Part shown: positions 49,503 through 52,562 of the stretch, in pieces | Layout of the letters: every line of letters starts with the position of its first letter | How positions within the stretch are numbered: position 1 is the first letter of the stretch | Origin: Spirochaetia bacterium | GTDB lineage: Bacteria; Spirochaetota; Spirochaetia; Treponematales; Treponemataceae | Direction: 5' to 3' | Length of the DNA: 52,562 nt | Assembly (NCBI GenBank): GCA_022768685.1 | Contig: JALEPQ010000057.1 | Location: 1-52,562 of the forward strand | Position numbers and translations under genes: made by a program | The notes under the pieces: model-generated | Databases searched by the model: none | The model's input: only the letters and a program-made list of their open reading frames with translations | Told to the model about the DNA's origin: nothing

Positions 49503-50375
49503 TTAAATAGTACGCACAAGTTTACAATCCCATGTAGCAGCAAGCAAATTACACGCGAATTCAGCTTGTTGTATCAAAGTAAACACACCAAAAACTGTTG
49601 AGCCAGAACCTGACATTTCAGCATAACAACAGCCTAGTTTTTCTAACTCACCTATTGCCTTTCCAATCTCAGGATAAACCTTAGAAATAACAGGTGTAAA
49701 TGTGTTCTTAAAAGACCAATTCTGAACAGATTTGTTATAAACAAACTCTAATTCAGAAAAATCAGGACCTTCTACCTCTTCTCCCCGGTTATACGCTTCA
49801 TCTACAAGACTATAAGCTTCCTTAGTAGATGAACTTACCTTTGGAAAAATCAACAACAAAATTAAATCTTTACGTGGAGCTATTTCTTTTACAATTTCAC
49901 CGCGTCCGGAAACTAATGCACAGGATCTTCCATTTTTATCACCGTGCATAAAAAAGAAAACATCACTTCCCGTTTTTGACGCCACATAATCAAGCTGCAA
50001 ATTAGAAAGTGAAATTCCACATATATTTTCAAGCACTCTGATTAAGGCAGCGGCATCAGAAGATCCTCCACCTAAACCTCCACCAGATGGAATCCCTTTC
50101 TTTAATTCTACATTAACTCCAGGAACTTCCACTCCAGCTATTTCTACAAATGCTTTATATGCTTTTGTTAAAGTATTTTCAGCAGGCAGGTCCATAAATT
50201 CACAATGAACCTTACATTCCTTTTTTTCATTCCATGAAACTATCAATTCATCATATAAATCAATAGTCTGAAAAATACTTTCAATGTTATGAAATCCATC
50301 TTCTCTTTTTGGCAAAACCTTCAAGCCGAAATTTATTTTTGCATACGCCTTTTCAAGTACAGTTTCAAACATCAT
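49503..50375 (-). CDS. ispE: 4-diphosphocytidyl-2-C-methyl-D-erythritol kinase
   Basis: Motifs AKINFGL, IPSGGGLGGGSSDAA, GSDV and MSGSGST. Confidence 0.96.
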   Translation of the reverse strand: MMFETVLEKAYAKINFGLKVLPKREDGFHNIESIFQTIDLYDELIVSWNEKKECKVHCEFMDLPAENTLTKAYKAFVEIAGVEVPGVNVELKKGIPSGGGLGGGSSDAAALIRVLENICGISLSNLQLDYVASKTGSDVFFFMHGDKNGRSCALVSGRGEIVKEIAPRKDLILLLIFPKVSSSTKEAYSLVDEAYNRGEEVEGPDFSELEFVYNKSVQNWSFKNTFTPVISKVYPEIGKAIGELEKLGCCYAEMSGSGSTVFGVFTLIQQAEFACNLLAATWDCKLVRTI

Positions 50376-50584: not shown

Positions 50585-50613
50585 TATACAAAATAAGATA
50601 TATGTACTATACT
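50585..50613 (+). promoter_or_regulatory. Sense promoter, TA-like unit 1
   Basis: TATACA-17-TATACT, with identical hexamers and spacing in unit 2. Confidence 0.65.
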
Positions 50614-50698
50614 GATTTTGAAAGAGCCAGATTCTATGGTGGCGGCTCCCGAACTCAACTGGATTTGCCAGAATTTGATTTTAGGGAGGCTTTGCGGA

Positions 50699-50788
50699 AT
50701 GACTTTATACGAAATTATTTCGTTGGCTATTAATTTAGCCCTTTTCATTCTAGCAGCCCTTTCTTACTTACAAAATAGAAAGAGTTAA
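50699..50788 (+). CDS. Putative type I (holin-like) toxin peptide, 29 aa: MTLYEIISLAINLALFILAALSYLQNRKS
   Basis: SD GGGAGG (50684-89), a single TM helix and a basic C-terminus. Paralogous architecture in unit 2. Confidence 0.75.
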   Translation: MTLYEIISLAINLALFILAALSYLQNRKS

Positions 50789-50880
50789 AAAGTAAAGCCG
50801 CCCATACGTTCGCAATGCATTGGACGGCTTTATCACCAGAAAATGTGGAGACGACCGACAGAATCGGGCACTTCTTCCTT
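50787..50880 (-). ncRNA. Putative antisense antitoxin sRNA, unit 1 (ends approximate)
   Basis: Lies downstream of the convergent promoter and ends at hairpin 50793-50832 followed by U residues. Confidence 0.6.
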
Positions 50881-50885
50881 TTTTT

Positions 50886-50914
50886 AATATACCACCAACC
50901 AGCTTTTTCGTCAA
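50886..50914 (-). promoter_or_regulatory. Convergent antisense promoter, unit 1
   Basis: TTGACG-17-TATATT with an extended TG. Confidence 0.75.
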
Positions 50915-50967
50915 ATCTATTGCAATTCATTTAGAATAAAAAACTCAAACACTTCTGAATAATAACC

Positions 50968-50996
50968 TATACAAAATAAAATACATATACTATACT
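50968..50996 (+). promoter_or_regulatory. Sense promoter, TA-like unit 2
   Basis: TATACA-17-TATACT. Confidence 0.65.
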
Positions 50997-51078
50997 GATT
51001 TTGGAAGTGCCTGAACTGGCGGTTATCTCCCAAACTCTACTGGCTTTTGCTGGAATTTAATTTTGGGAGGCTTTGCGT

Positions 51079-51177
51079 ATGACTTGTGAATGTGTTATTG
51101 CTCTAGTAACTTGTGTTGCCACAATAATCACTACAGTTATAGCAGTGCTCTCTTATCTAAAAGATAAAAAAGAGTAA
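51079..51177 (+). CDS. Putative type I (holin-like) toxin peptide, 32 aa: MTCECVIALVTCVATIITTVIAVLSYLKDKKE
   Basis: SD GGGAGG (51065-70), a TM helix, LSYL shared with unit 1, and a charged tail. Confidence 0.72.
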   Translation: MTCECVIALVTCVATIITTVIAVLSYLKDKKE

Positions 51178-51259
51178 AAATATAGCCGCCCAAGTTTGAC
51201 TCACTAACGGCGGCTATTCGCAAAAAGTGGAGATAACCCGACGTTCGGGCATTTCCTTT
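51176..51259 (-). ncRNA. Putative antisense antitoxin sRNA, unit 2 (ends approximate)
   Basis: Lies downstream of the convergent promoter and ends at hairpin ATAGCCGCC/GGCGGCTAT (51182-51217) plus a U-run. Confidence 0.6.
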
Positions 51260-51264
51260 CTTTT

Positions 51265-51293
51265 AATATACCACCAATAAGCATTTTCGTCAA
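51265..51293 (-). promoter_or_regulatory. Convergent antisense promoter, unit 2
   Basis: TTGACG-17-TATATT with an extended TG, the same hexamers as unit 1. Confidence 0.75.
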
Positions 51294-51447
51294 ATTAATA
51301 AAAAATCAATATAGTACAAAATAAAAAAGCCGGGCTTAATTTTTGTGAGTTTTTAGCGAAGCGTTAAAAAACTCACGGCTTGTGCAAACTACGCGTACGC
51401 TGGTATTAAAACTCACAGCACGAGCCAGGGGCAGTTCTTACGCACCA

Positions 51448-52562
51448 CTAGTTAAAAGTCCTAACACTACAAACATATTCCTTGAAGCACTTGTTGTCGG
51501 TGACCATTCTGCCACTGCCACCGTTTAAACACAGACCCCACACGTTACTACAGTTGGAAGGGTTCTGACAACAAGACCAGTAACAATAGTATGAGCTAAA
51601 CTGGGTTCCGCCTGCTTTTGAAAGGCTTGCATCTACTACAGCTTTGTTCTGGCAGATTGTGCCCAGTTCTGCCACAGTTGGTAAATACCAGCCTGTTGCA
51701 AGGTCTCCTTCAAGCCCATTGTTAGCACCATAATTCCTGCAATAATTCCATGCAGGGTAGTTTTGTGCAACAGTCTCTATTGTTTCAGAAGTTGCATTCT
51801 TTAAATCCTCACAGGCTGCTACAAGTAAATCCCAGCCGTCGCTTCCATCCATGTAGCCGCTTGTTTTATCTCCCTGCAAAGCAGTTATGTATGGGATGTA
51901 ACCTGCGGCACTAGTTGTGCACCATTCAATATCGCTTTTGTTATGAAAAATTCCTACGCCAAGGGCTGGCTTTGTTAAGGTATCAGCACGTACGATTACT
52001 GCGGCAACTGTATTGCTTTCTGGAGTCTTATCTTTAGACAAAATTGTTCCCTCTTTTAAGACAAAGTCGCCAACACTGTATTTTGGAGTGTATATTGTAT
52101 AACTAACACTTGCAACAGCACTGTTGTTCATGCCATCCTTTATTGCAATTGCCTTAAGTGTTACGGCCGCTGTTACACTGATTGCAGCTGTGTATTCTGT
52201 GTTTTCCACTGTTGGTGCAGTTCCGTCTGTTGTGTAGTAAATCTTTGCACCTTCTGTGCTACAAGTGATAGTTACTTCTGTTCCGCTGTCTACTTCACCT
52301 GAAGCAACACTGAATGCTGGGGTTGCTACTGTTCCTTTTATTGTATAACTAGCACTTGCTACAGCACTGTCGTTCATTCCGCTCTTTACAGCAATTGCCT
52401 TAAGTGTCATTGGTGGTGTAACACTGATTGCAGCTGTGTATTCTGTGCTTTCCGCTGTTGGTGCAGTTCCGTCTGTTGTGTAGTAAATCTTTGCTCCTTC
52501 TGTTGCACAAGTAATTGTTACACTTGTTCCGCTGTTAACTGCACCTGATTCAACACTGAATG
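51448..52562 (-). CDS. 5'-truncated surface protein: tandem Fn3-associated/CHB_HEX_C repeats plus a C-terminal DUF1566/Lcl (CLec-like) domain
   Basis: The frame is open to the window end. It has IYYTTDG repeats, then WYLPTVAEL...YWS...W...K...V.SVR.F-stop. Confidence 0.8.
   Translation of the reverse strand, partial: FSVESGAVNSGTSVTITCATEGAKIYYTTDGTAPTAESTEYTAAISVTPPMTLKAIAVKSGMNDSAVASASYTIKGTVATPAFSVASGEVDSGTEVTITCSTEGAKIYYTTDGTAPTVENTEYTAAISVTAAVTLKAIAIKDGMNNSAVASVSYTIYTPKYSVGDFVLKEGTILSKDKTPESNTVAAVIVRADTLTKPALGVGIFHNKSDIEWCTTSAAGYIPYITALQGDKTSGYMDGSDGWDLLVAACEDLKNATSETIETVAQNYPAWNYCRNYGANNGLEGDLATGWYLPTVAELGTICQNKAVVDASLSKAGGTQFSSYYCYWSCCQNPSNCSNVWGLCLNGGSGRMVTDNKCFKEYVCSVRTFN
52090..52562. 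repeat. Intragenic 246-bp tandem repeat (82-aa domain)
   Basis: CAACACTGAATG occurs at 52305 and 52551, with long near-identical flanks. The left boundary is approximate. Confidence 0.85.

Follow-up and report, generated by a model that had tools for sequence, protein, structure and literature searches.

Among toxin–antitoxin (TA) modules of type I, bsrG/SR4 of the Bacillus subtilis prophage SPβ is, by analogy, the closest working model and an experimental precedent for the locus analysed here. Excerpts of PMC3834814 describe a probed helix, P1, that pairs nt 1–35 of bsrG mRNA with nt 232–262; the antisense RNA SR4 binds the 3′ end of the mRNA, opens P1 and lets the stem at the Shine–Dalgarno (SD) sequence grow from 4 to 8 bp, RNase III cleaves, and the first contact is made by the antitoxin's terminator loop. 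For bsrE/SR5, passages of a review (PMC6562991) state that SR5 does not refold the bsrE SD, that BsrE is toxic only when overexpressed, and that plasmid pBS72 encodes BsrE. In aapA/IsoA of Helicobacter and in hok/Sok, a co-transcriptional SD hairpin gives way to a long-range helix that joins the 5′ end to the 3′ end, the full-length mRNA is inert (for aapA, in sections of PMC8167048 and PMC6733600), 3′ processing activates it, and the antitoxin acts on the 5′ UTR. Convergent type I modules of C. difficile, with toxins of 50–53 aa, lie beside CRISPR arrays (excerpts of PMC6563280).

A passage of a 2025 paper (PMC12390103) lists type I systems from Proteobacteria, Firmicutes and Tenericutes, together with that paper's own cyanobacterial case, and SymE spans five phyla according to a section of PMC5367252. 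The original prediction for this locus knew of no characterised type I TA system in Treponema, and our search of the open-access literature likewise found none for any spirochete. Specifically, excerpts of the text of Fozo 2010 do not mention spirochetes and its supplement gives 0 type I loci for T. denticola, while the sampled portions of the T1TAdb paper and its supplements contain no Treponema entry.

Two tandem units with a common layout

The window, that is, the whole stretch of 52,562 nt analysed (contig JALEPQ010000057.1), carries two units of about 380 bases side by side, which start 383 bp apart and each contain a tiny hydrophobic peptide ORF and a predicted antisense RNA. Sequence checks recovered in place all the elements that the original prediction had listed for both units. 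In unit 1, a predicted sense promoter (TATACA-17-TATACT; 50585..50613, plus strand) is followed on the same strand by an mRNA 5′ arm (50620..50650) that ends in the anti-SD sequence CUCCC (50646–50650), by the SD GGGAGG (50684..50689) and by the ORF of the putative toxin (50699..50788), a hydrophobic peptide of 29 aa with a basic tail. The hairpin AGCCGCC..CGGCT (50795..50830, arm from 50796) is the predicted terminator of an antisense RNA on the minus strand, with an A-run at its left that corresponds to a minus-strand U-tail. The mRNA 3′ arm (50847..50878, plus strand) starts with a decoy GGAG and is followed by a T-run; substitutions in the 5′ arm weaken its pairing with this 3′ arm. The antisense RNA itself, predicted at the sequence level to be about 90 nt long (50786..50879, minus strand), would be driven by a predicted minus-strand promoter with an extended TG (TTGACG-17-TATATT; 50886..50914).

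Unit 2 repeats this order. Its plus strand carries a predicted sense promoter (TATACA-17-TATACT; 50968..50996), a 5′ arm (51003..51031) ending in the anti-SD CUCCC (51027–51031), the SD GGGAGG (51065..51070), the ORF of a second putative toxin (51079..51177; 32 aa, hydrophobic, charged tail) and a 3′ arm (51229..51256) that likewise begins with the decoy GGAG and precedes a T-run. On the minus strand, the conserved stem AGCCGCC..CGGCT (51183..51217, arm from 51184) is the predicted terminator of an antisense RNA of about 85 nt (51174..51258, also predicted), whose 5′ part is similar to the 5′ arm of the mRNA itself and whose predicted promoter (TTGACG-17-TATATT with TG) lies at 51265..51293.

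The upstream neighbour of the pair is a minus-strand gene with GHMP kinase domains in Pfam (49503–50375), which we take to be ispE. Downstream, a palindromic repeat of ~100 bp (51338–51436) recurs 16 times on six other contigs, often as tandem copies, and looks like a REP/BIME-type intergenic repeat. The minus-strand gene beyond it (51448..52562) encodes Fn3/CHB_HEX repeats and a C-terminal Lcl_C-like domain (weak Lcl_C match); a 246-bp direct repeat at 52093–52562 is a domain duplication of this gene.

The units belong to a widespread spirochete family

The same genome holds six more copies, two of them complete and the others truncated or cut by contig ends, and the unit 2 peptide has an identical copy on contig C94. 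Of 200 other genomes in the genus, 71 contain a match to unit 1 DNA. A peptide profile finds members in 15 of 50 genomes of the same family and in 2 of 8 of a second family; its two marginal matches elsewhere among 400 genomes of the phylum are at loci without the DNA module. Furthermore, a motif scan of GTDB genomes returned at least 125 stretches, at least 101 of which match the module profile. Among the matches listed, 80 stretches have titles and 63 of these match the profile: 57 are titled Treponema, Treponemataceae or Spirochaetales/-aceae/-ia, many of them from animal or human gut, and six are named otherwise. One of the six is a weak match; each of the other five is a module, whole or in part, on a short contig of an assembled genome and may carry a wrong label. 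The host of the window is accordingly likely a gut treponeme. A family draw started from a locus titled Lachnospiraceae returned a locus identical to one from the window's own family.

For the comparisons below, we fetched 90 loci, which are a subset of the matches, and added four contigs of the same genome; together these gave 114 hits, 64 of them full-length; 62 full units (<93% identity) were counted, and 50 partial hits and 2 near-duplicates were left out. Tandem arrays also occur: three modules at G000:C94:255-999, where a short RT fragment of a diversity-generating retroelement (DGR) cuts into one of them at the 5′ side, and at least three each at L258 (G507:C62:557-2151) and L226. In other copies (L232, L233, L225 and L007), the ORF is interrupted, stops early or has its tail shifted out of frame, and this damage suggests that modules decay as well as spread.

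Searches beyond the spirochetes gave little. Neither unit's DNA matched plasmids or phages by blastn, and tblastn found no match for the unit 1 peptide in plasmids or for one relative's peptide in phages. Covariance models of Rfam antitoxin families gave nothing better than E=1.3, and an NCBIfam search of the peptides gave weak generic small-membrane matches only. A protein atlas returned unnamed clusters and one lead at 0.82 with Hol_Tox on 23% of members, which we treat as a lead only; among 1.84 billion representatives, 107 matched in a profile search, and nine clusters looked up from these contained one named member, 'hypothetical protein'.

Conserved signals and coding selection

A promoter scan of the window alone is weak (13 sites versus 5.7 ± 2.4 in shuffles); conservation over the 62 distinct homologues is far beyond chance. 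Across these units, the four promoter hexamers hold 1.3–1.9 bits and the hairpin arms 1.95–1.98 bits, against 0.16–0.74 bits in spacers, loop and flanks (spacers 0.33–0.74), with both promoters kept while the spacers drift. The sense promoter has a 17-nt spacer in 55/62, and six others have a TTG −35 element three bases upstream. The antisense promoter of the TTGAC-17-TATATT type and the hairpin are present in all 62, giving every unit, at the level of sequence, an antisense gene with its own promoter and terminator that overlaps the toxin mRNA. Contigs of seven RNA runs and of one run of unknown kind cover units, these being unstranded, derived from relatives and also crossing promoters and spacers.

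The ORFs are equally preserved, with an SD followed by an ORF of 25–45 aa in 62/62 units (56 ATG and 6 GTG starts) and a peptide of 25–35 aa in 61. Hydropathy over 19 residues exceeds 1.6, a transmembrane-like value, in 61/62. The ratio dN/dS is 0.26, 0.23 and 0.27 in three ORF subfamilies and 0.37 over all 32-aa peptides; shifted frames of the four groups give 0.53–3.5, compared with 0.23–0.37 in frame. The ORF is thus under purifying selection, and the product has the properties of a type I toxin: small (<60 aa), hydrophobic and with a charged C-terminus. The family is real, selected and widespread. In addition, the conserved ORF, the promoters on both strands, the terminator-like stem and the coding selection uphold the originally proposed type I layout with a 3′-overlapping antisense RNA, and the units, to judge by their sequences, are very probably type I TA modules composed of a putative toxin and a predicted antisense RNA.

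An end-to-end helix of the mRNA

A feature that the original prediction had missed is an inverted repeat that links the 5′ end of each transcript to its 3′ end (51003–51030 with 51229–51256 in unit 2). The predicted mRNAs, 251–284 nt long across the family, fold better than shuffled sequences in both units (unit 1, z = −3.31; unit 2, z = −7.75). We named a structure with 24 pairs in the end-to-end helix and 8 in the hairpin and scored it on 50 of the 62 units, the same sequences from which it was drawn: 93.4% of cells are paired, compared with 41–52% in slid controls, and there are 53 two-sided changes, compared with 11.8 ± 3.4 in shuffles (0/500 reach it). RNAalifold recovers the end-to-end helix unaided. 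Two-sided changes fall at 8 of 22 helix pairs; placed on a tree that was made from other columns, they require 26 origins or more, although changes at neighbouring pairs are not independent of each other. Mean arm pairing is −40.2 kcal/mol for cognate, −33.5 for non-cognate and −15.2 for shuffled arms, and the cognate 3′ arm beats the mean non-cognate arm in 60/62 units.

The CUCC of the 5′ arm can pair either with the SD or with the GGAG that starts the 3′ arm. The four CUCC/GGAG pairs have zero two-sided changes, so the covariation supports the adjacent pairs only. A separate mRNA terminator after the helix is absent; a T-run stands there, with 6.6 T in 9 nt on average. We infer that the helix itself terminates the mRNA at this T-run, which could equally reflect the antisense promoter.

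Imperfect inverted ends, variable positions and several copies per genome would also suit a non-autonomous, MITE-like mobile element with the inverted ends as transposase sites and an incidental ORF. We hold this to be very improbable, given that conserved promoters lie outside the inverted arms in 62/62 units, that many arm changes keep G-U pairs, fitting RNA rather than DNA ends, and that the ORF is under purifying selection.

A predicted switch at the ribosome site

Folding was performed as an equilibrium prediction, with RNA ends that we assigned. In the nascent RNA, the SD is predicted to pair with the anti-SD in 61/62 units, so that it is sequestered in the primary transcript, as in type I systems. 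In the full-length RNA, the outer helix is predicted in 61/62 and the decoy captures the anti-SD in 36/62; the SD then lies on the anti-SD in 19/62, on the codons for LSYL in 25/62 and free in 1/62. Blocking the antisense-covered region is predicted to re-lock the SD in 59/62. The predicted cost of opening the SD is 5.5 kcal/mol in the full-length RNA versus 9.7 kcal/mol without the 3′ end, where it is higher in 57/62 and lower in 4. The drop exceeds 2 kcal/mol in 51/62 units, in 1/62 with the arm shuffled and in 0/62 with the decoy swapped in silico. Modelling of this kind inclines us towards an SD switch operated by the 3′ decoy, which we rate as somewhat probable.

The two units of the window differ in this respect. 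Unit 2 follows the rule (4.4 kcal/mol full-length versus 10.1 without the 3′ end), whereas unit 1 is an exception with no drop (8.5 versus 6.9 kcal/mol), and its 3′ arm pairs better with the 5′ arm of unit 2 (−39.3) than with its own (−24.3). The folds thus predict an intact switch in unit 2 and a mostly locked unit 1, in which the switch is likely weakened.

With the SD mostly paired in its predicted fold, the full-length mRNA may be silent too. A free SD in just 1/62 units, and one held by the conserved LSYL codons in 25/62, would suit a type I TA system in which the helix is structural or stores the mRNA, as in bsrE/SR5, hok and aapA, the antisense RNA acts mainly through RNase III decay and activation needs processing; the unrefolded bsrE SD and the inert full-length aapA mRNA, as given in the passages cited above, point the same way. 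However, trimming of the 3′ arm is predicted to re-lock rather than free the SD in 59/62, and the decoy GGAG is nearly invariant, its in-silico swap abolishing the effect. We regard such a storage role as unlikely, though worth keeping in mind.

We favour a type I TA system in which the antisense RNA pries the mRNA ends apart; as a whole, this is the best explanation and in our judgement a fairly probable one. According to this model, each unit would encode a small hydrophobic peptide silenced from the mRNA 3′ end by a convergent antisense RNA of 85–90 nt. In the finished mRNA of ~260 nt, the 5′ 30 nt would pair with the 3′ 30 nt, as the covariation supports, and the decoy GGAG with which the 3′ arm begins is predicted to capture CUCC, making the full-length mRNA the looser, translatable form. 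The antisense RNA, predicted at 78–91 nt across the family with a terminator-like stem and a U-tail, spans the whole 3′ arm; by covering this arm, with a 5′ part that mimics the mRNA 5′ end, it would displace the helix. As a result of this displacement, the anti-SD would pair with the SD again, and a duplex of ~85 bp would be open to RNase III, domains of which are present in the genome. Upon loss of the antisense RNA, the peptide would enter the membrane and arrest growth, and such arrest may favour the retention of variable DNA close by, one lineage of DGR cassettes among it.

Pairing within and between the units

The antisense-covered regions of units 1 and 2 have at most 9 contiguous nt in common, and their hairpin loops differ. 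By analogy with bsrG/SR4, the variable loop of the unit 1 hairpin is likely the site of first contact with the antisense RNA. Computed duplex energies, in which self-structure is ignored, are −189/−167 kcal/mol for cognate versus −87/−75 kcal/mol for non-cognate pairs; cognate duplexes are thus about twice as stable, and non-cognate pairing is not negligible. On these energies, the proposal that the two units do not cross-react is plausible, and cross-talk is probably low.

Relation to known type I systems

The units resemble bsrG/SR4 in having a convergent antisense RNA over the 3′ end and an end-to-end helix. They differ, as far as the bsrG/SR4 excerpts go, in three respects: SR4 is 180 nt long versus the predicted 78–91 nt here; bsrG has its own terminator hairpin after P1, whereas a T-run directly follows the helix here; and the SD stem of bsrG grows, whereas the anti-SD of the units is predicted to swap wholesale between the SD and the 3′ decoy. 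With bsrE/SR5 and bsrH, which belong to Hol_Tox, the units share a peptide of 25–35 aa with one hydrophobic stretch and a basic tail, P1, a post-stop hairpin and the mRNA length, but their predicted antisense RNA is half as long as SR5 and their predicted SD switch is absent with SR5. The co-transcriptional SD hairpin that yields to a long-range helix recalls aapA/IsoA and hok/Sok, in contrast to which the full-length form is here predicted to be looser and the antitoxin to act on the 3′ end.

A profile search was run on the original observation that the peptides resemble Hol_Tox. For the family the resemblance holds, since four other peptides of this DNA family reach the Pfam cut-off of 23.3 bits (25.0, 23.4, 31.0 and 24.7), whereas the window peptides fall below it (17.3 bits for unit 1; no Pfam match for unit 2). 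Overall, 8 of 33 family members match Hol_Tox (PF16935) at E ≤ 0.5. A database peptide, P0097, that is one residue away from a passing member matches 16 Bacillales phage records (E 0.02–6) and eight plasmid loci (E 0.5–9), all eight annotated as putative holin-like toxin and one of them on pBS72. Family profiles rank four holin-like peptides above all but 0–1 of 300 shuffles, scores that are not independent because the four were picked by similarity. The family DNA profile matches three of four Firmicute holin-like loci (E 9e-5 to 0.1). In the folds of three Bacillales holin-like loci, P1 is accompanied by one hairpin after the stop codon and another at the terminus, and the switch drop is just 0–1.6 kcal/mol (the fourth locus being unreliable), which agrees with SR5 leaving the bsrE SD unrefolded in the review passages.

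The BsrE descriptor of T1TAdb (Table S1) is matched in P1, in an mRNA of 200–300 nt and in a peptide of 25–35 aa. Four further descriptors fail: the loop between SD and anti-SD is 30–46 nt rather than 3–10 nt; the terminal SL5 after P1, a hairpin that the Firmicute loci have, is replaced by a T-run and the antisense promoter; the antisense RNA is predicted at 78–91 nt rather than 160 nt ±20%; and the ORF overlap, given an assumed 3′ end, is predicted at ≤2 nt in 60/62 rather than 3–30 nt. For this reason we regard the family as a new variant. It is likely a distant Hol_Tox/BsrE relative that works like bsrG/SR4, and a member of neither family as defined.

A different possibility is that the antisense RNA regulates a non-toxic small membrane protein, which might, for instance, modulate neighbouring surface proteins or a membrane complex; that BsrE is toxic only when overexpressed, in the review passages, and that some copies adjoin DGR-type target genes would both suit this. 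Yet the family is multicopy, tandem, patchy and found at unrelated loci, and its peptides vary freely in length and sequence under a tightly locked SD, all of which is like type I toxins, and the plasmid matches of the family peptide are holin-like toxins only (8/8). We consider a non-toxic role improbable.

Two other kinds of Hol_Tox-scoring ORF occur. L299 (G095:C22:87024-87125, minus strand) is a second Hol_Tox lineage in the genus (25.7 bits) without a match to the family DNA profile; it has the same predicted end-to-end helix capturing the anti-SD, with SD opening at 7.1 versus 12.5 kcal/mol. L300, L302 and L309 carry a third kind of short ORF, after which there is apparently another one, in DNA unrelated to the module.

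Genomic context and the link to DGRs

The position of the module is not conserved, as 0 of 14 relatives carry one near ispE, and a fixed link to this gene was rejected. The 82 neighbouring ORFs are diverse and include restriction, transposase, PIN, Fic and FGE-sulfatase genes. Genes with FGE-sulfatase domains, a known type of DGR target, flank 8 of 208 module loci (L004, L007, L011, L033, L044, L218, L220 and L222), a modest enrichment because five such genomes hold 13–17 matches each.

Of 208 loci with a module, 11 are flanked by an RT gene or a fragment of one (10 of 181 distinct loci after removal of one duplicate); across the genus, 201 genomes give 102 RT matches, from which we estimate about 0.1 flanking loci to be expected, kin not being independent. 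L251 and L285 each have a DGR with the module placed in between template repeat and RT, and mismatches between the repeats of these DGRs are almost confined to adenine (17/18; 95% of 19). In L252, the module follows the RT (adenine mismatches 17/17). RT fragments abut modules in L032, L033 and L199. A general DGR link was rejected, with a module at only 2 of 20 further RT loci, several of them on short contigs, and the link is therefore confined to some lineages. The setting recalls the C. difficile modules, which are also convergent and next to a diversification or defence cassette; here the partner is a DGR and concerns a minority of copies only.

The neighbour gene at 51448–52562 is likely a DGR target by sequence: its 3′ end is 72–74% identical to the target and template pair in L273 (18/22 mismatches at A). 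Of 19 other loci fetched for this gene end, some overlapping, four carry a module. A template repeat and a full RT were not found in this 92%-complete genome, so this site could represent a remote target, or else a cassette that has decayed.

Discussion

Within the open-access literature, the family is a new variant in a phylum where we found type I systems undescribed. We put forward tentatively, as possible rather than probable, a bolder description: a first spirochete type I TA family with inverted logic, in which the full-length mRNA would activate itself through a 3′ decoy, the end-to-end helix would double as terminator stem, a minimal antisense RNA mimicking the mRNA 5′ end would displace strands 170 nt from the ribosome site, and one lineage would serve as an addiction module inside DGR cassettes.

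The family would add a phylum to the range of type I TA systems, and its presence would point to an arrival of the Firmicute BsrE/Hol_Tox lineage in gut spirochetes. Its 62 natural variants offer a compact RNA switch, in which a 3′-binding antisense RNA would control initiation at a distance, a cleaner form of the SR4 case. Finally, the DGR link opens the question of whether addiction modules help to keep hypermutation cassettes.
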